From Catajapyx aquilonaris (Eukaryota): 64,000 nucleotides of DNA. Positions 50,845-61,810 of this stretch are shown in pieces. Under the pieces are notes generated by a model, which was not told where the DNA came from, searched no databases, and saw nothing but the letters and a program-made list of their open reading frames with translations. A program made the translations under genes and the position numbers. The stretch's first letter is position 1; each line of letters starts with the position of its first letter. The stretch is taken from assembly GCA_000934665.2 (NCBI GenBank), contig KZ537962.1, positions 1 to 64,000 of the forward strand, in the 5' to 3' direction.

Positions 50845-53342
50845 GTAAATTCATCCGCATAGTAGCTAATGTACAGCCCCAGTTGGAGCCAAATCTACAC
50901 AATTAAGATTGTGATTTGATATATTGCACATATCCAAAGATGGCCACCTGTATGATTTTTGTGGAATTTCTGACCCGTTGTTACAATGTACCTTGTTCTC
51001 GAATAGGGTTGTGATGAACTATGCATAAGATGAAGAGGGTGCTGTGTAGTACTAATTCATTGCGAGTTATTTATTTATGAAAACCGCGCTAAGCAAGTTC
51101 CAGTTTGCAAGTTTTTGGGGGTATAATTTGTCTGCGGGGGACGATGGTGGTTGTGGCCCATTGAAAATTAATGCGATTCAGGGAGTGATTTGCTGACTGA
51201 GGCAGTGAGGCTTCCGGATCCTTTGACGTCAGCGCAAGGTGTTATAAAATTGATATCTCTGGTTTAATCTGGTGTCCTATTTTAGATTTGAAGGCCCATA
51301 AATAGTGCGACACATGTACATGTTTAGGTTTGAAAATATGATACACGTTCTGTTCTAGAGATATCACATGGTGATGAGGGATTGCATTAGTGTATAGGAC
51401 ATACCATGTAGTGCTCAAGCACAATGACGAATTTCAGAAAGAGTCGAGGACTAACAGCAAGCTTTGGCACAATTGGAGCCCAGCAGGTTCAACGTTTTAT
51501 AAATCACTCAGCAATATTTCCAGTTTACCATCTGGAGCGTTTCCAAATGGCGCAATTTATCATCTGGAGTACTCTCAGTGACATCTCTGCCCTGATTTAC
51601 CGCACAATTGTTTCAGCGATAATATCAGTCCAATACCGAATCCAAATAATGCATTAAAACCGGAGGAATGATTGATCGTACCTGTCCTGGAAAAGGGGCA
51701 GGTGGCAGCAGTTGAACAGTCGTTTCTCTCAAGATTCATTGCTAGATTACGCACTTCCGCCTGTAAATTAAATGCACACATTCTGTGGAGAGTTGGTTGG
51801 GTTACAATGTTGTTCTGTGGCAATGACAAAACATAAATTATGCAATTTCGCATCTATCACATTTGTGAGGCCATTACCAGTGCTACAAACTTTGTCAGCA
51901 GGCGGTTAAAAAATTTAACTGGTGTACAATCATCCATTATTTTATTATTGTTGACCGACTGTAGTGGCTGACAAGACCTTCTGTATCCTGGGAGTTAGGC
52001 TGTGTCGGTAGTATAGTTGGGCACAGTTGGTTGCTTCCAGGCCAGGATGAAATGTGGTTTCTTGAGGAATCCTCCACTGGCACGCCTGGAATCTTGCGGG
52101 GCGAATTCAATACAACCAGTCTTGCGGCTCTTTACAGCCTGCTTCTAGGTGTAGAGTTAGAGCTAGTATATTTTTTACCCCCCTCTGGACGAGACCAGGC
52201 ATCCGGCAAATTGAAAGATTAGAGCTTCCTGGTTGGAGAGAGGAAGAGGATTTTTACTGGGTAGGAGTGGGGATGGGTATAGAGCCCGATGGTTATTCTC
52301 TTTCTTTTTTCCCCCCAACCGTGCGACGTTTGCGTCGACTTAGGAGCAGTTTTTCCTAGGTCCCGGAAAAGCCCTCGCAGCAACCAAATTGAGTTTGGTA
52401 GAGCAGCCGGGACGTTTTCGCCAAAGAGGAACGGATCTCAGGAGTTACTTGAAAACTCGAATTTGCCTTTTTTCTACTTGCTGGGTTGCGATCTTTACTT
52501 TTTATGGCTTGCATTTAAGTAATATTTATGGAATTACTTTATATTTTGTACAAGTAAATTATATTATGCTCTGAGTGACACCAGAAGATTAAGTGAATAA
52601 TACTTACAAGCACAATGTAATTAATGTGATTTTGCACTTGCTGGCCAGCATATCACATCATGGAATGGAGTCTGGCCTTGGTATTTTCTCTGGGATCTTG
52701 GAGGAGAGAAGCTACTCCACAGAGTATTGATCTTAATTTGGGGTATGAACTAAGTCATAAAAACCATTGGGATCCTCTGGTGGCATCATTTCAGTAGCGA
52801 TAACCATATGTTGTGGCCCTAGCTCCTCAGGGAGAGCTTTGGGCTTGTTGATTGTTTTAATTAAAGCCGATGGAAGTCAGCCTGCTGAGCGCAAAATGCA
52901 AATCTGCTAGCTTATTATACAGAACTGAGTGATCCTCAACAAAGTTGAAGCCCCGGGACTGACTTGGTCATGCCTCAGCTGTAATAATGATCCATAAGAA
53001 GTGCATCAAAGAGAAGGAAGTGTTGTTTCTGTGCCTACTGCAATATCCGTAATAATTTATTATCATTGAGTTGAAAGCACAAGAACTAATCAGTATTCTC
53101 CGTACTCAAATATCAGTGTTGTAGAAAAGTACAAACATACCCAGCTGAATCGTGTCAGTTTCACTATAATAAATTTTTACTGGGGTTCACAAATGCCTGT
53201 CATCTCTTGCCATGCTGAACTGGACTTCAAATTCCACCTTCGGCACCAGAATTTAATTGTTGGGTGCATCTGGGATAAGTGTGGAAGTTTGAAAGTTGTG
53301 GTGCTTAAATGGCCATCATCTGTTTGTCTCCCCCCATTGCAG

Positions 53343-53521
53343 GAGCGACTCATAAAGAAGTTGGGGCCAAATGCTTACCCATTCTACTTTGAGCTCCCAC
53401 CACACTGTCCTGCTTCTGTGACACTTCAACCTGCCCCAGGAGACACTGGTAAACCCTGTGGAGTGGATTACGAGCTCAAGGCCTTTGTGGGTGAGACTCC
53501 TGATGACAAACCACACAAAAG
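53343..53521 (+). CDS. krz: beta-arrestin exon 5 ([14 protein letters not shown]...KPHK-R), 179 nt
   Basis: Matches arrestin N-domain sequence [24 protein letters not shown]. gcag| and |gtcact boundaries. Confidence 0.97.
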
Positions 53522-53602
53522 GTCACTTTTTCTCCATTAGTACTTCATCCCCTCTTGTGTGGGTCCTTGCAGTGACAATTCATTTCCATTATTCTGATGC
53601 AG

Positions 53603-53738
53603 GAATTCCGTCCGTCTTGCCATCCGGAAGATCATGTATGCTCCTAGCAAACAAGGAGACCAGCCGTCAGTTGAAGTTAGTAAAGAATTTATGATGAGCC
53701 CCAACAAGTTACACCTTGAAGCTTCACTGGATAAGGAG
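53603..53738 (+). CDS. krz: beta-arrestin exon 6 (NSVRLAIRKIMYAP...LHLEASLDKE), 136 nt
   Basis: Polar-core arginine motif SVRLAIRK, the hinge, and LEASLDKE. gcag| and |gtaagc boundaries. Confidence 0.97.
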
Positions 53739-53847
53739 GTAAGCAATGTGTTGTGAGCATCTGTAGGCAATCAGTAATGTAGTAAGGGAGAACAATTAGC
53801 ATTTAATGGAACGCAGAGTCTATAAATTATTGTTCTGTTAATTTCAG

Positions 53848-53932
53848 CTGTACCACCATGGCGAGAGTATCGCCATCAATGTACATATTGCAAATAACTC
53901 TAACCGAATTGTCAAAAAAGTCAAAATTTCAG
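53848..53932 (+). CDS. krz: beta-arrestin exon 7A ([29 protein letters not shown]), 85 nt, alternative copy 1
   Basis: ttcag| and |gtacag boundaries, phase 0 to 1. Homologous to vertebrate [27 protein letters not shown]. Confidence 0.95.
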
Positions 53933-54102
53933 GTACAGTATGTGTTTTATGCCAGGCTTAACTTTATCTTTCTTCTTCCTTCTCACTGTTGCTCGTACAT
54001 GTGAAAGTGGTGGCAGGCTGGATTGGGTAGTTTACAGTGTCATGCCATGGGTGCTCTGTACCTGGAGCAAGGAAGAAAAACTTTCTCTTTTCCTGCATGT
54101 AG

Positions 54103-54187
54103 CTTTACTGCCATGCCGAGACCATCTCAGTCAATGTCCATATCCAGAATAATTCCAGCAGAAGTGTTAAAAAGATTAAAGTGTCAG
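54103..54187 (+). CDS. krz: beta-arrestin exon 7B (LYCHAETISVNVHIQNNSSRSVKKIKVS-V), 85 nt, alternative copy 2
   Basis: ctttctcttttcctgcatgtag| and CAG|gtatgt boundaries. Same length and phase as 7A, no stops, 18/28 aa identical to 7A. Confidence 0.9.
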
Positions 54188-54833
54188 GTATGTGTCACAT
54201 TCTATGTTTTTGCATTGGTAGTTGTGCAAAGAGTAGTGAACAACTTAATTATGACTGACAAGACTGACAAAGGTCACAGCATCGCTGCTTACTGCACTAC
54301 GTAGCATTTTCTATCGTTTGTCGTATGGATCAAGAGTAGAATGTGTCTCCTATGTTTGGGATGTACTTTATGTTACTGTTACACTGAGATGCACGTAAGG
54401 GATTTTGGTAGTCATAGACAGCTTGGGACTGATGAAATGTATCTCATTGTAATTAATCATAAAATTCAAGTATTCCAAACTCGATATCCATTCCTGTTTG
54501 CTGTTTTTCACACTAAGCTGCTGGTTTTTAAGCATTCTTTAGAGAGATAACAAAATTGGTATCTTCACTCAAGCAAGTGGAAAGGAAACAAATGTCAGTA
54601 ACCAAGTGCATAAATCAAAGTAAATTAGAGATGATATTAACTGTAAATATTTTTGTTAGCTCTTAAATAAATGCTTGAAAGTTAACGCTAAGCTGAATAT
54701 TAGTCGACAGTTGCATGCTAATAAACAGCATAGTGGGGAAAATTCTTAACTCAAGCAAATGTAGGGTTTGGAATACTTTGTGCACGTGTTAAAAACTACT
54801 GATTAACGTGACCTAAATGTTTTTCCTTTATAG

Positions 54834-54906
54834 TGCGTCAGTTTGCAGACATCTGCTTATTTTCTACTGCTCAGTACAAATGTACAGTAGCAGAAATTGA
54901 GAGTGA
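54834..54906 (+). CDS. krz: beta-arrestin exon 8 (RQFADICLFSTAQYKCTVAEIES-E), 73 nt
   Basis: Conserved VRQFADICLFSTAQYKC. tatag| and |gtaagt boundaries. Confidence 0.97.
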
Positions 54907-55732
54907 GTAAGTATCAGGTACATCAGGTATGAGGGGGGATAGGCTTAGTGCAATATGCAGTGACAAATCATGGGTGCAGTCATAGAGTACCGGTACCTGA
55001 TAATGTGAAATGCTGTCCCCTTCCCAAGGCCTGTTTATGGAAACTTTGCAGTTGTGACCTGAAATGTACATTTGCATATTTCATCAGACATTGACCATCT
55101 TGGGAGGGCTCATGATCCATGTAGCATTCATTGTGTTCTTACACTGAAGTTACTGTAATTTTGTTAGGTATAATGACCTTTTTCTGGTGTAATGAGTTCA
55201 GTCTCCAGATCAAGTGAAGGATTATTATCGAATATACAGTAGTAAAATTTTGAGGAGTTATCTCTGGACTTTCCCCTAGCCCTTCTTGGGTTTTACCATA
55301 ATCTCCTAGTTTCCTTGCCTTGTTTCCTCCAATGGACCGAACTTCCCTGTGGCAAAATTTTAACTACACCCATGATCATAGTAAATGATGAACAATTTGT
55401 GGAAGAGAAAGTACGGTAATTCAACCACTGTCAATAAGAGTCTTGGAATTTTAGTGAGTGCAAAAAACAATTTGAAGTGTAGCATACAAGTTGTTCATCA
55501 TTAATTTTCACTGCAGGTTAGTAATATGTGTTAATTAAGACAGGTTTTGCCAGTACAGTGCTTGAGAAACACTTTCAGTCGGTGCAGTAAAACCTAATGC
55601 ACTGAAGTGTCATGGTGGCATGATGCTTTTATAGCAGCTCGAAATTGTAAGTAAATTTCAGGCATTGGTGCGACTGGTTCTTACATTGCACTTTGTATCC
55701 ATGAGCAGTGGAGACTGACGTCTCAGCTATAG

Positions 55733-55946
55733 ATTTTTTATTGCTGGCTAAGCACGTCTCTGAAGAATTGATATCCTTCCTTTTGTATAGTAAGAAAATG
55801 ATTGACAAAAGTAGATGATTGCTATCAAGCTTCAACCTGATGGATTTGCTGTAAATTTTTTATTGCCTGCTAAGCTTATTGCACAGAATTGATGTCCTAC
55901 CTCTGTAGGAAGCAAAATGATTGACAAATATGAATGATTGCTATCA
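55733..55946. repeat. degenerate direct duplication (two copies of about 93 nt, offset about 120 nt) in intron 8
   Basis: attttttattgc..ctaagc..agaattgat.tcct.cc...aaaatgattgacaaa...atgattgctatca occurs at about 55733-55827 and again at about 55855-55946. Confidence 0.75.
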
Positions 55947-56784
55947 GGGCACAGCTTATTCGTCACAGCGGACATTGGAATAGAGTTGTGCATTAACTAT
56001 GCTTTTCACGTAATAACAGTATTAGCCATTCAATTGCCATAGTCGCATCAGAGAATGGATGGAAGTGCACTGTATAATGATTTAGAAGGCTTCTACGGGT
56101 GGGACATGCTATTAATTGCGTCATCCTTTCATTTTAAGATAATGCATGCAATCTGAGGAGTATCTCAAGGTAAATCAATCTAGATGCTGCACATGAACTT
56201 CACAGGTTCAGAGCTTCTCACTTGGGTCCAACTTGTTAGTGTGTGCTATGAATATGTTTCCTAAACTAGTCCATTGCTATAGTAATCTCAGTATCGTATC
56301 CATTGAGATGGAAAGCATTTTGCTTCATAATTCCGGAATGTAATTTATGAGCTAAGAATTCTTTTATTTAATTTGTACAGAGAATTCCCACAGCATTTCA
56401 TTCATATGAATGAGTATCACCAAGAGGACCAATAATATTCCTATAACATGACACAAAGTGTTTTCACATCTCTGCTCATGTTTCCTACTAACTCTAAACA
56501 GGACATTATTTATGGACATGCAGTAGGCCATTGACTCAATTGCAGATGTTAGTTTTATTAGTAGAGAATATGGAAGGATGACAGTAAATTTGTTAACTTT
56601 AAGTCCAGTAAATGCCATTTCCAAGGTCCCTTCATGTCACAGGAGAAATATAATTAGAGAAAAGTAGAACAAAAAGAAAGACTGAGATTTGGGGAAAAGA
56701 GTTGGCAGCAGAGTAGCTTAGCCCCCTGAAATTATTTTGCAAACGTCTGCTGCCACCATCACTGGAGCTGCGGTGTTGTTTCAG

Positions 56785-56928
56785 ACAAGGATGCCCGGTA
56801 GGCCCTGGCTTCACTTTGTCCAAGGTTTTCTATCTGACCCCCCTGTTAGCCAACAATAAAGATAAGCGAGGGTTAGCGCTAGATGGTCTCCTGAAACATG
56901 AAGACACTAACCTGGCGTCCTCAACAAT
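56785..56928 (+). CDS. krz: beta-arrestin exon 9A ([47 protein letters not shown]), 144 nt, alternative copy 1
   Basis: tgttgtttcag| and |gtaagt boundaries, phase 2 to 2. Carries the lariat/gate-loop motif [19 protein letters not shown]. Confidence 0.95.
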
Positions 56929-56993
56929 GTAAGTAGGATTCGGAAACGTAGGTATGGTAGCAGAGTAGTAACCGGTGGGCTTTTTTGTTGCAG

Positions 56994-57137
56994 AGAGGGC
57001 TGCCCAGTTGGGCCAGGCTTCACCCTCTCCAAAGTGTTCTCTTTAACTCCATTGCTGGCCAACAATAAGGACAAGTGGGGCTTGGCCCTTGATGGGCAGC
57101 TTAAACATGAGGATACTAATTTAGCTTCCAGTACCAT
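56994..57137 (+). CDS. krz: beta-arrestin exon 9B ([47 protein letters not shown]), 144 nt, alternative copy 2
   Basis: cttttttgttgcag| and |gtaagt boundaries. Same length and phase as 9A, 43/47 aa identical. Confidence 0.95.
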
Positions 57138-58846
57138 GTAAGTATGGTGCGCACACACTTACACGGCCCAGTAACAATAACTTGTCATCAATGGCAACAG
57201 CCGCTTCAACAATTAACTCACTCTCACTATATGTTAGGGGCCTCATGATGACACTTGCCGTAACTGACACTGTATTTCACTTAATCAAATTCACTCACGC
57301 CCATATGTCATTATGTTGGCCGCATCCTGCATGTTTCGCTAGATTTGTGTCTGTAGCTTTTGGTTGCGAATGGGGAGTAGCACTCGAGGTTTTTATGTGT
57401 GTGTGCATGTAATATGCAGTATTGGGCTGTGCAGAAATGTTGCCTGAAACGAGAAGAAATGGGTCTAATTAAAGTCGTAAACAAATATATAAAATAAATG
57501 GTATGTTTTTAAAATAAAGCATCTCATCACAGCCCACTACTGTACTAGGAGTCTGTGTGACGCACTCAAATCAGTAGTCATGTTGGAAAATGTGGCACAT
57601 AATAATTATGATAAATCTTGGCATTCGGACATGGGTCATGTGAGGCATTATTATGCACTTATCTGAAAATGATTCCACTAAGATACATATATTTGGTTTC
57701 TTTTTTAAATAAAAATGAAATCTGCTGATCTGAGTGTGATTTGGGCTTAAGGATGCCAGCAGGATGCAGAAGCTGTCATAAATATGTATGCAATAGTGTA
57801 AAGTTATAAATTATGCAGTTCCATTTTGCATACCTGCTGGTACCAACCTTTGACCCTTGCACTGGAGAAATCTATTGTTCATTTTTGATATTTGCTATCA
57901 TATTTATCATTGTAAATCTTAACTTTCCAGTTTCACACGTATGTCTGTCAGAAGTTTTATTATTTAGCAGTAGCTGACATTATAATTATTAGACATTGCC
58001 TTCTGTGGATTTCAGTGATGCCAGGAATTCTCTAAATCGTACAGTATGAGAATGGTTTGCAGACCATTCTGGGCACAGTTATAGAGGAAAATTGTCACTA
58101 TCTGCATCCATAATAATCAAAGTTTCTGTGAATGTGTTAGGCACATAAGATATACATGTGCTATTTGCCTGGCGAGATTATTGCCAAAACCAAAGTGTTT
58201 GTTCACTTTTATGTATGTCATTTTAGCGGTCAAAGGTTACCATGGGGTGTTCAGTAACACACACAAATCAACTGTCACATCATACAGAAACCGTAATATC
58301 AAATATTGCATCTAATCCTATTACAAAAACACCTGGATGCATTAGGTTTAATACTCAACTCCAACATGATATAGAAAGAATATGGGATAATAACATGCAG
58401 ACCATTGTGCAGAATTAAATTATCCATTAAATAGAAACTGGAAAGTGTGTAAAGAGAAGTGATACTGCACTGCAGCATGTATGGTATTGATAACCTAATG
58501 ATTCATTAGAACATGAAATCAAGGTGTGCATTAACATTGATTACTTGTCTCAACTTCATGAGAAATACCTTCAATGCAGGTATTTTGTAATGTTACCTGT
58601 ACCATCCATCCAGCAGTGTGGCACATGCCATGAAATGTTTTGCTCTTTGATTAAATATTATATGTTGCAATTAAAGTAATATCTTACAATGTGTTACATT
58701 TTCCTTGATGAATTCAAGGGTTGCAATCAAATGTTGTTCTAATATCAGAGTAAATGACAAGTTGATGTTTGAAATATTTTTGCCCTTGAATCCTGCTTGA
58801 ATGTTATTGCAATTACTGTATAATTCAGTGAGGGCTTAAATTGCAG

Positions 58847-58876
58847 GTTTGATCGGGATCAATCCGGTACTTCAAA
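58847..58876 (+). CDS. krz: candidate 30-nt cassette microexon (M-FDRDQSGTS-K)
   Basis: ttgcag|G TTT GAT CGG GAT CAA TCC GGT ACT TCA AA|gtaatt. Phase 2-2 matches the flanking exons and there is no stop. The pyrimidine tract is weak and I have no homology support. Confidence 0.35.
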
Positions 58877-58955
58877 GTAATTGCTTTTCTTAACTTAATT
58901 ATCATATCACAAAGAATGTAGCATATTAATATCGAAGCCATCAACTTTGTTGCAG

Positions 58956-59042
58956 AATCACTGAGCCATCTCAGAGAGAAAACTTGGGCATTATTGTCCA
59001 ATATAAAGTGAAGGTGAAGCTTTGCCTCGGACCCCTTTCAGG
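58956..59042 (+). CDS. krz: beta-arrestin exon 10 (ITEPSQRENLGIIVQYKVKVKLCLGPLS-G), 87 nt
   Basis: Conserved RENLGIIVQYKVKVKL. tgcag| and |gtaagt boundaries. Confidence 0.97.
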
Positions 59043-59118
59043 GTAAGTTCTTGTGAGACTTACGTGACTGTGCTTTTGATGCAGTTAAATATTCATGCGC
59101 ACTTCACTCTTGTTTCAG

Positions 59119-59265
59119 GGATCTAGTAGCAGAGCTGCCCTTCATCCTAATGCATCCAAAGCCAGAAGAGGAGCCCTTGCCTCCACTCCGTTTAAGTCCT
59201 GCCATGACCTATGACAATGATGGCCACAACGTTCCAGTGGACACCAACTTGATCCAACTTGACAC
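59119..59265 (+). CDS. krz: beta-arrestin exon 11 ([18 protein letters not shown]...[10 protein letters not shown]), 147 nt
   Basis: Contains [11 protein letters not shown] and the clathrin box LIQLD. ttcag| and |gtatgt boundaries. Confidence 0.97.
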
Positions 59266-59520
59266 GTATGTATACATCCTGTTGAACGTTTTCAAAACAT
59301 GTTCACTCGTATGACTTGCACAATGACATTCACATAAAGTGAGTTTGCAAAGATCATGTAATTTAAATAATAATCAGTAAATTACATTTCCAAGATTCAG
59401 TATTTGAATTGCGGCATTTTGTTGGTTACTTCTCACTTTCTCAGTGTTGGAGTTGGTGTAATAATTTCTAACACAAGTGCAGCGGTAGATATATCTAATT
59501 ATCACAAATTTTTGTTGCAG

Positions 59521-59641
59521 AGATGGCCAAGGTGGCATAGCAGACCCTGATGATGACATCATCTTTGAAGATTTTGCACGATTACGGCTAAAAGAACAAG
59601 AGACAGAAGATGGTTGGGAAGTGAGACAAGACCCTTTTTAG
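59521..59641 (+). CDS. krz: beta-arrestin last coding exon (DGQGGIADPDDDIIFEDFARLRLKEQETEDGWEVRQDPF*)
   Basis: AP-2 beta2-binding motif DDIIFEDFARLR. TAG stop at 59639-59641. Confidence 0.95.
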
Positions 59642-61810
59642 CTGAAAAAACACTCTTTGCACTGAATAACGTTCCGCATCTTCAGCAGAGTAATGTTCTG
59701 ACTGTTTTATGAAAGACGAGAAGCCAGCAAAAGCTTCTCATGAGTGCCATGACTCATGCTGAGTGACACTTGTACAGAAGAAGTGCAGGGCATTGGTAAT
59801 TTTTTTTTGCTTAGTTTTAAATATTTTCTTGCCCAGAAATGACGGGTATGACATAAACTGGGTTACACAACAATGTTTTGTATGATTATAATCATCTTTG
59901 TTCCCTTGCGACCTGCAGGGTCCTCCCTTTCCATATTTGTAATGTCTTTGTAATTCAGATGTTTGGTTTCTGTCCTACAAAGTTATATTTTGCTCAGCTT
60001 GTCTTCCATGTCCAACAACCATTTAGCTTAATCTTTTGTGTTGTTCTTATTGTATTCTACTTGTTATTGTATACTTGTGAGGTACTCCACACTTCTGTGG
60101 CCATATGTGATGCATTTGCTCAGTGTACTTTTCATCTACACTGATAGCGTCAGTAAAGTGCGCCTACAGAGGAACATGGTTGTTCCAAAAACTGAGTGTT
60201 TCTCCTTTTCAGTTTTAGCTCAGTCAAATTTTTAATTGGTAGGGTCGAAAAATCTTGCACAAACACCAAATGAAATATTTAAATTGGCATTAAAATACCT
60301 GACTTCACAAGACCTATTCCAAGAAATGAGAGAAGCAATGACTTATTACAAGGTGTTGCTCCGATGTGTGCACATCCGTAGCATCCAATGGCAATCACTT
60401 AGGACCACGTGAAGGTTACGTGCCAATAGCAAGAATTTAGCTGGACCTTGCTTGCCCTTCAGTTGTCTTATTCTGTGGTCTAGTCTTTTTGTCAAATATC
60501 GCGTCCTCTAAGGAAAGGGAGGATGACTGCATATACTCTCAACAACTGCAGTAGTCACTCTTTGTGATGCCCGCATGTAAATTGCTGTGAACAATTTTTT
60601 TTTGCATCTGTGACTTGCAAGTTACCTGGTTCTTTGCACTGTACCAGTGAATCAATGTACTGTACTGTATAGCGATGCTTGTTGTTTTGTAACAATGGTA
60701 TTTTAGAACGGCACTGATACATTAGGAACGCATTTGGAGGTTCTTTTGAATGTGTTGGCTAGGAGATGAGATTAGCTGCTCTTTTGTAAAGGAGGGCATT
60801 GTCATTCCATTGCTGCGAAATGCTAACTGAAGCAATTTGGCAACAAGGGTCCAATTTTTATCTCAGTAGTGGAGTACAGGGATGAGATTCAATTCAGATT
60901 GAAGAGTTCAATTGTAGGGAAAAGAGTTTTATATGCAACTGCCTTTTCAACTACCTGACATATTGGATGACCTCCATTGGAAACTAATTAATTTTGTCAA
61001 ATACTGCTTGTTTGTTGGTGGGCAGAGAAAAAATTGAGATGTATTCTTTAGAAGGAGATAATAATTGTTCAACACGTGCAACACATCAGTTAGCATCAGC
61101 CAACTAGGTGTTCCTGTAGGCGAGGAAAATATTTTCTTTTTTCTACATCTGGAACTGAACTTAAACTTGAAGAAAAGAGGCCAAAATACTGCTCATTTTG
61201 TATCGATTTTGACATAAGTAACCTTGTAGGGGCACGAACAAACTTGGCAAAGGTACAATGTATGCATTTGTATGTAACAATGCAGTTTTGGAAACGGGAG
61301 GCAACAGAAATGTATTAGTGAAATTGGTGCCAGGGCTTGGAGCTATGATGATGTATTTTAGTGCATACCTTTTTAACTGTGTAGGCAAAATTTTGAGAGG
61401 CATATTTCATATCACATCGATTTTCATCAGTTGTTTGCAAAGGTTGTTTAAAGATATTCCTTTATACATTGGAAAGGTGAAAGATGGCATTGTAATGAAA
61501 TGTTGTGCAAAATATTTACCAAGTGACTGCACCCAAATGCTTAACATAGAGTAATTTCGATAAATATGATGAGCTGCACATGCTGTAAAGCACCTGTGGA
61601 CTAATGGTCACTTGTATATTTTTTGAATGAACATGGCATGAATGTGATTTAGGATAACTGATTGTACTTGAGTTGCTGCTGCAGTATTTCAATGTGTAAT
61701 AATACCTTCTGCACTGAATTTATTTGCAACAAAGTTTGTTATATGTTGTATGGTAATCAATCATGTAAAGTAAGGTAAATTATTGTCAATAAAATTCTTT
61801 CCTGTAATGT
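59642..61810 (+). other. krz: probable beta-arrestin 3' UTR (about 2.1 kb)
   Basis: AT-rich non-coding sequence between the stop codon and the first canonical AATAAA I found. Confidence 0.55.
61788..61793 (+). terminator. polyadenylation signal AATAAA
   Basis: Several TGTA elements upstream and U/GU-rich sequence downstream. Lies about 440 nt before the next gene's ATG. Confidence 0.6.

Follow-up and report, generated by a model that had tools for sequence, protein, structure and literature searches.

Candidate competing RNA pairings around a pair of alternative exons in an arthropod non-visual arrestin gene

The shut-off and re-routing of GPCRs are decided by arrestins. Judged from sequence similarity, the 64,000-nt stretch of Catajapyx aquilonaris contig KZ537962.1 that was analysed here (the window) harbours the 3′ half of an arthropod gene for a non-visual arrestin of the kurtz / beta-arrestin type. 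With three full-length arthropod arrestins as tblastn queries, 12 exon positions were mapped between 14293 and 59608. The peptide encoded by exon 9A matches beta-arrestin-1 at residues 262–304 with an E value of 4e-15; this 47-residue peptide gave no Pfam match on its own, and both PF00339 and PF02752 are present in its database relatives. We take the exon 9 stretch to be the part of the protein that goes by the loop names lariat/gate loop, which participates in arrestin activation. Exon 9 is found twice, as 9A and 9B, and the coordinates of both copies are collected in Table 1 together with the neighbouring exons and the intronic elements discussed below.

Table 1. Features around the exon 9 pair; coordinates refer to the window, and exon joints are those carried by RNA-derived contigs.
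Feature	Position	Strand	Remarks
Exon 8	54833..54906	+	donor joined to either 9A or 9B (tblastn, RNA-derived contigs)
S1 ("selector 1", upstream partner), core TGGCAGCAGAGTAG	56703..56716	+	first 10 nt pair perfectly with D
D ("docking site"), TCTGCTGCCA	56746..56755	+	ends 29 nt before exon 9A; shared pairing site
Exon 9A, 144 nt, R type	56785..56928	+	beta-arrestin-1 residues about 258–305; joints 54906->56785, 56928->58847
9A–9B intron, 65 nt	56929..56993	+	four TAG triplets, two of them TAGG
S2 ("selector 2", downstream partner), core TGGTAGCAGAGTAG	56955..56968	+	in the 9A–9B intron; first 10 nt pair with D, one G–U
Predicted 9B branch site, TAGTAAC	56966..56972	+	branch A 56971; 42 nt from 9A donor, 22 nt from 9B acceptor
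Exon 9B, 144 nt, W type	56994..57137	+	joints 54906->56994, 57137->58847, 57137->58956
Exon 10	58956..59041	+	acceptor for exon 9 or for micro-exon (tblastn, RNA-derived contigs)

Exons 9A and 9B have AG/GT borders on both sides and share the same phase. The two copies agree at 102 of 144 nucleotides and at 43 of 47 residues, and among the four differences are Arg (R type) versus Trp (W type) where beta-arrestin-1 has R285, and Leu versus Gln where it has K292. Identical codons are used at 14 of the 43 same-residue positions. As only 17 of 48 third codon positions are identical, the duplication is old. The window holds only two duplicated exon pairs, and an alternative exon 7B is also present.

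The use of both copies in RNA was evaluated with contigs from one public run. These carry canonical GT..AG joints on 53300–59700 and thus behave as RNA-derived. The donor of exon 8 is connected with either 9A or 9B, and each of the two is joined onward to downstream exons, so that the pair consists of real alternative exons, as originally predicted. Neither a joint between 9A and 9B (56928->56994) nor a double-skip joint is listed among the contigs of this run, which speak to presence only. It had also been argued that exclusion of one exon calls for a mechanism other than NMD. This holds in so far as NMD cannot police an in-frame pair of 144-nt exons; still, RNA pairing is not singled out by the argument, given that the 65-nt intron places the predicted branch A only 42 nt from the 9A donor.

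A protein search with the 9A peptide gave 970 matches, and the following figures are from the best 120 of these 970. At least 31 of the 120 matches listed are gene models with both copies in tandem, the R type (...DKRGLALDG...) preceding a W or C type, and the sources of these two-copy models are insects, decapods, and an isopod. A doubled score was also obtained for ostracod models, though the pattern recognised only one copy in them, and the chelicerate, myriapod, and Daphnia proteins among the matches listed have a single R-type exon. All 31 two-copy models originate from genome annotation or UniRef and none from transcript-assembly sources. A second protein search returned R-only and W-only isoforms from the same species for Linepithema, Schistocerca piceifrons, Anoplophora, and Neodiprion; its proteins from transcript assemblies carry the R type alone (P0166, P0221) or the W type alone (P0130, P0133, P0152, P0210), never both. 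For Lycorma, an R-only isoform and a model with both copies were obtained, and some Hymenoptera models include both exons or neither. The occurrence of R-type-only and W-type-only isoforms in many insects argues that 9A and 9B form a mutually exclusive cluster of long standing. On the basis of these protein comparisons, the pair is older than insects and conserved from crustaceans to insects. The R/W isoforms themselves are already contained in public annotations; a full-text literature search found no description of a beta-arrestin exon pair or of a beta-arrestin case of competing pairings.

Three short intronic elements, denoted S1, D, and S2, surround exon 9A. A script confirmed that S1 TGGCAGCAGA (56703–56712) is the exact reverse complement of D TCTGCTGCCA, and that D pairs with S2 TGGTAGCAGA (56955–56964) over 10 bp including one G–U. 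The S1:D helix thus comprises 10 Watson–Crick pairs with an energy of -17.9 kcal/mol and the D:S2 helix 10 pairs with -15.9 kcal/mol, and the energy comparison that had been proposed for the two states finds them near-isoenergetic. Because the same 10 nt of D are used by both helices, S1:D and D:S2 are mutually exclusive. Past the 10 pairing nucleotides both S1 and S2 run on as ...GTAG, and reading of the sequence revealed no further base pair that extends either helix. The original prediction had described a shared 14-nt core beside exons with heavily diverged synonymous sites; the shared stretch and the divergence (third positions 17/48) are both there, and the cores are identical at 13 of 14 bases.

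The geometry differs between the two states: the hairpin loop of S1:D measures 33 nt, and the D:S2 helix loops out 199 nt. D is located 29–38 nt upstream of the 9A acceptor (29 nt measured where about 30 had been predicted), i.e. in the expected 9A branch region, and is paired in either state. S2 lies 25 nt upstream of 9B. S1 is found upstream of D and not between D and 9A, with D in the intron preceding the cluster, which suggests a layout related to the canonical docker–selector order but not identical to it. The gap from S1 to 9A amounts to 68 nt versus 25 nt from S2 to 9B, and the excess of 43 nt equals the loop (33) plus D (10). This spacing would agree with the creation of D by an inverted templated insertion, or with a second D having been lost after duplication.

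Folding of the locus gave a graded picture. The local fold is the S1:D hairpin with -19.7 kcal/mol and a z score of -2.33, and 5 of 200 shuffles were as good. The minimum-energy structure contains D:S2 whenever the folded stretch reaches S2; these long-range folds have z scores of -0.97 and -0.18, with 28 and 86 of 200 shuffles folding at least as well. Mean pair probabilities of S1:D and D:S2 were 0.41/0.52, 0.93/0.05, and 0.42/0.51 in three folding contexts, i.e. comparable for both states in two of the three. RNAduplex permits large internal loops, and in the shuffle-scored duplex tests its energies are meaningful only against their own shuffles, by which D scored p=0.057 against the 65-nt intron, p=0.005 against the 156 nt upstream, and p=0.13 against the whole upstream intron. 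The single helices are only marginally better than shuffles. In the downstream intron, no significant partner was detected for D (p 0.62) or S2 (p ~0.6). A 17-bp pairing of 56948–56964 with 57891–57907 (-19.7 kcal/mol) was considered as a downstream partner of S2 that would have rounded off a two-state model, and discarded, since shuffles were equal (p=0.66 and 0.59).

How ordinary such features are was estimated across the window. Outside low-complexity sequence, it contains 21 perfect inverted repeats that are 10 bp or longer and fit within 270 nt, seven of them with a loop of up to 60 nt, and 11 clusters of 14-mers repeated within 300 nt with up to one mismatch. Taken singly, features of either kind are thus commonplace, at about one per 3–9 kb. 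Such counts, the marginal energy tests of the single helices, and the failure of the longer 17-bp pairing at the S2 flank to outdo its shuffles (p about 0.6) all speak for pure coincidence, with S1, D, and S2 being three short matches in a 64-kb window. We nonetheless regard this as very improbable, because the hairpin arm is itself the repeated motif and lies beside one of the two duplicated exon pairs. A third 10-bp partner within 300 nt is found for one of the 21 hairpins, namely S1:D. The similarity of S1 and S2 yielded p=0.006 with 2000 shuffles and p=0.004 with 500, and the S motif occurs in three copies with up to two mismatches against 0.45 expected, a number that 0 of 100 shuffles reached. 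The three-element arrangement as a whole is non-random and unlikely to have arisen by chance. The third S-like copy, TGGCAACAG near 57193, was tried as a partner of D and rejected due to broken pairing (p=0.44). A search of Rfam found no family at E values up to 1 across 55500–58000.

The likeness of S1 and S2 may also have been kept for reasons other than pairing, as candidate splicing-regulator sites or as decoy 3′ splice sites (UAG/YAG-rich: UGGYAG-CAG-AG-UAG), with the complementarity to D being incidental. Seven copies of AGAGTAG are present across the window, every one of them on the sense strand, and four of the copies fall within 54230–56968 beside the alternative exons 7B, 9A, and 9B. 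Moreover, half of the TAG triplets in the 65-nt intron are part of TAGG, and UAGG-type motifs are presumably binding sites of hnRNP A1-like proteins. Against an expectation of 4.44 copies, a count of seven is reached by 14 of 100 shuffles, however, and the clustering was noted post hoc. The perfect 10-bp complement between S1 and the exon would be left unexplained as well, which makes a role of S1 and S2 as regulator or decoy sites of this kind appear unlikely.

The conservation of the three elements was assessed in 47 related loci, defined as metagenome contigs with DNA coding DKWGLALDG. Both exon types are found in 11 of the 47: termite-like L004, L024, L027, L045, L028, L009, and L025, ant-like L011 and L018, L016, and mayfly-like L020. 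Six representatives were used (L004, L028, L009, L011, L016, and L020), the other five being dropped because each repeats the sequence of one of the six. In copepod-like genomic loci only one exon, of the W type, is present, and cDNA-like contigs account for 16 of the loci. The expectation that the elements are conserved in relatives failed, as both motifs are absent from all 47 loci; the available relatives are all very distant, with a best identity of 73% in the variable C-terminal exon 11, to insects of several orders. Short-word blastn of the window introns against the introns of the six two-exon loci revealed nothing co-located. A duplex test with mononucleotide shuffles, in which the 150 nt preceding 9A were set against the 65 nt immediately ahead of 9B, scored p=0.037 in the window and 0.11–0.85 in the six loci, and 30 direct or complementary alignment tests in the same six loci gave nothing below p=0.044. 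With the motifs missing from the 47 loci and no analogous pairing in the six, S1, D, and S2 are not ancestral to the exon pair. An 8-bp hairpin upstream of 9A in termite-like L004 was considered as an analogue and rejected because of two uncompensated changes in L028. Scans of genome and viral contigs with a 15-residue peptide pattern returned 0 matches, and short database ORFs compared with the translated flanking introns of the window gave no match.

The very short intron between 9A and 9B introduces a further explanation. We take TAGTAAC as the 9B branch site, by its likeness to the consensus TACTAAC/CTAAY. Since only 42 nt lie between this predicted site and the 9A donor, steric hindrance has to be taken seriously as an alternative account of the exclusion itself. 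In the human survey of Hatje et al. (2017), as far as its account of close branch points goes, less than 50 bp from donor to branch point denotes potential steric interference, whereas introns of less than 65 bp are described for Drosophila as a normal, efficiently spliced class (PMC10946897, in its treatment of short introns). Between the two, 42 nt is borderline for an arthropod. Steric hindrance and ordinary splice-site competition could then control the pair, with S1 and S2 as leftovers of a local duplication, D as a templated inverted insertion, and their complementarity as a functionless by-product. Such an origin agrees with the 43-nt spacing difference, as the perfect S1:D repeat could result from a single mutational event, and with the lack of motif conservation. 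The absence of a 9A–9B joint from the contigs of the one run points the same way, as does mayfly-like L020, where the 9A–9B intron is 47 nt long and a CTAAT-type branch site lies about 21 nt from the donor.

Conversely, the Drosophila short-intron class (PMC10946897) indicates that an arthropod may tolerate 65 nt, or 42 nt to the branch A. Relatives with the exon pair do not share the short intron either, as it measures 809–1590 nt in five of six two-exon loci (L016, 809 nt; L011, 1537 nt; L028, L004, and L009, 1579–1590 nt). R-only and W-only isoforms occur in species with such introns, to which steric hindrance is inapplicable, and some other control is needed in those lineages. As to the by-product, a neutral remnant should not stay identical at 13 of 14 positions where third codon positions have decayed to 17 of 48, and since the exon pair is common to many insects and crustaceans one would not expect a neutral vestige of the original duplication to have persisted. 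We rate the combination of steric control and functionless complementarity as less likely than not.

The position of S2 also bears on the direction of any pairing effect. S2 itself reaches to 2 nt before the branch site predicted for 9B, and this site is overlapped by the 14-nt core. The claim that the downstream pairing favours 9B is not upheld by the sequence: abutting the predicted branch site, S2 could equally block 9B when paired. Furthermore, choosing 9A removes D and S1 along with intron 8, and pairing alone cannot explain the skipping of 9B in that case.

In summary, we tentatively favour S1–D–S2 as a lineage-specific modulator of the choice between 9A and 9B, probably together with the short intron, and would put the chance of this somewhat below even. 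D would pair locally with S1 (33-nt loop) or with S2 (199-nt loop-out), one helix at a time, and this bistable element may bias which 3′ splice site, 9A or 9B, is joined by exon 8. The ban on joining 9A to 9B would be owed at least equally to the very short intron, with its 42 nt from donor to predicted branch site. We infer that the helices form in vivo and change the 9A:9B ratio. A bolder proposal is that in this lineage S1–D–S2 acts as a minimal toggle that sets the R/W choice, that this toggle, with its middle element placed between S1 and exon 9A, arose independently of the classic docker–selector systems, and that one gene provides two proteins differing in the lariat/gate loop; as a whole, this is rather doubtful.

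An in-frame exclusive pair at the lariat/gate loop would provide two arrestin flavours from one arthropod gene. If the toggle is real, a single gene would offer a parallel to the vertebrate beta-arrestin-1/2 split, and its RNA switch would be of a size that permits base-by-base dissection. Should a 10-bp toggle set the ratio, it would be among the smallest competing-structure switches and would illustrate that such switches can be lineage-specific, not ancient. If it does not, the locus would still offer a clean natural experiment on steric hindrance versus other exclusion mechanisms, because the intervening intron spans 47 to about 1590 nt among lineages.

Several known systems lend themselves to comparison. 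Alpha-tropomyosin 2/3 is a steric-hindrance cluster. Clusters of this kind, OGDH 4a/4b being an example in the available description, share with the arrestin pair the number of two exons and a very short intervening intron, the predicted branch site of the arrestin pair being 42 nt from the donor. They differ in that arthropods routinely splice introns of less than 65 bp, in the account of PMC10946897, and in that the short arrestin intron is not conserved. Competing RNA pairings at mutually exclusive exons are already well known, and the beta-arrestin case is new if real. According to the overview in PMC6071210, mutually exclusive exons of arthropods are governed by intronic complementarity following a docker–selector logic. 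In Dscam1 exon 6, as outlined there, an upstream docker is complementary to a site just before a variant exon, the intervening exon is looped out, and the pairings are mutually exclusive, all of which resembles the arrangement described here. The arrestin gene has only two exons and 10-bp helices, however, and S1 is located upstream of D as a local hairpin, not between D and the first exon. Conservation led to the discovery of the Dscam elements, whereas S1, D, and S2 are without cross-species conservation, and the Dscam exon 6 model, as presented in PMC6071210, includes the repressor hrp36, whereas no repressor is known for the arrestin pair.

Other docker–selector systems are more remote. 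In the outline of PMC6071210, the docking site is downstream of the cluster in 14-3-3zeta, Mhc, and MRP1, whereas D is upstream, and srp relies on bidirectional pairing with two sets of pairs, unlike arrestin. The duplication model of Ivanov and Pervouchine (2018), as summarised in the same source (PMC6071210), is akin to the arrestin locus in that S1 and S2 resemble a stem-loop arm that was duplicated beside tandemly duplicated exons, one state including the first exon and the other looping it out. The model predicts the order docker – arm – exon – arm′ – exon, whereas the arrestin order is arm – docker – exon – arm′ – exon. Relative to the scheme in PMC6071210, this order would imply that a second docker was lost or that D was inserted, and the one-step partial-duplication path does not fit. 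Human ATE1 exons 7a/7b, in the part of the work described in PMC7797038 that concerns this cluster, likewise form a two-exon cluster where R1 and R4 are rivals for the middle element R3. The ATE1 elements are conserved and mutation-tested, whereas S1, D, and S2 are candidate elements, and the ultra-long-range helix R2/R5 reported for ATE1 (PMC7797038) found no counterpart at the arrestin locus. By analogy of layout, the arrestin arrangement appears to be closest to the R1/R3/R4 competition of ATE1 and to the systems with an upstream docker.

Contigs of the public run X1, which carry GT..AG joints and so behave as RNA-derived, reveal an in-frame micro-exon between exon 9 and exon 10 of the arrestin gene (see the table below). 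The micro-exon is included downstream of both members of the mutually exclusive pair, 9A (56928->58847) and 9B (57137->58847), and joined onward to exon 10 via 58876->58956. It is omitted in a further joint of the same contigs, which connects 9B directly to exon 10 (57137->58956). When included, it contributes 10 residues directly after the lariat-loop exon.

Besides 9A/9B, the same gene holds another tandem exon duplication, with the copies 7A and 7B separated by about 170 nt. The run X1 contigs splice 7A to both neighbours (6 to 7A, 53736->53846; 7A to 8, 53930->54832), and depth is zero in the bins across 7B. The 7A type resembles the insect exon, and the 7B type its counterpart in arrestins from crustaceans and copepod-like sources.

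Features of the arrestin gene and related arthropod proteins
Feature	Position or protein	Strand	Description
Exon 7A	53846-53930		...HIANNSNR...
Exon 7B	about 54103-54190		...HIQNNSSR...
Micro-exon	58847-58876		30 nt, in frame; joints in run X1 contigs
AGAGTAG, beside 7B, 9A and 9B	54230, 54333, 56710, 56962	+	
AGAGTAG, other copies	18363, 26018, 36073	+	
Hymenopteran, neither exon copy	P0136, P0150 and others		407 or 399 aa
Hymenopteran, both exon copies	P0027		501 aa

The final 620 nt of intron 8, including the candidate pairing elements S1 and D, are spanned by an unspliced run X1 contig (56164-56814) that enters exon 9A. This contig reaches about the same depth as the spliced joints and is attributed to either pre-mRNA or DNA carry-over. 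All copies of the heptamer AGAGTAG lie on the sense strand, and four of the seven are clustered beside alternative exons; the total is not significant for the 64-kb window (7 versus 4.44 expected, with at least 7 in 14 of 100 shuffles). The 65-nt 9A-9B intron (56929-56993) contains four TAG triplets, two of them within TAGG, a type of motif bound by hnRNP A1-like proteins. They could mark silencer sites of this kind.

Elsewhere in the arthropods, the R-type and W-type exons each occur as the sole form, in different groups. Copepod-like loci (L031, L032, L036, L039, L041 and L047, with cDNA-like loci entered alongside) hold one W-type exon only, and chelicerate, myriapod and Daphnia arrestins one R-type exon only, among the proteins listed (best 120 of 970 matches). 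Hymenopteran annotations comprise R-only, W-only, neither-copy and both-copy isoforms; exclusion may be leaky here, or the gene models over-predicted. Both exons also stand in tandem in annotated protein P0003, closely similar to the mayfly-like metagenome locus L020, and this tandem arrangement is probably a gene-model artefact. At L020 itself, the gap between the 9A-type and 9B-type exons is only 47 nt (L020:1878-1924), and a branch site of CTAAT type lies about 21 nt away from the donor of the upstream exon, an arrangement that corresponds to the textbook geometry of steric hindrance.
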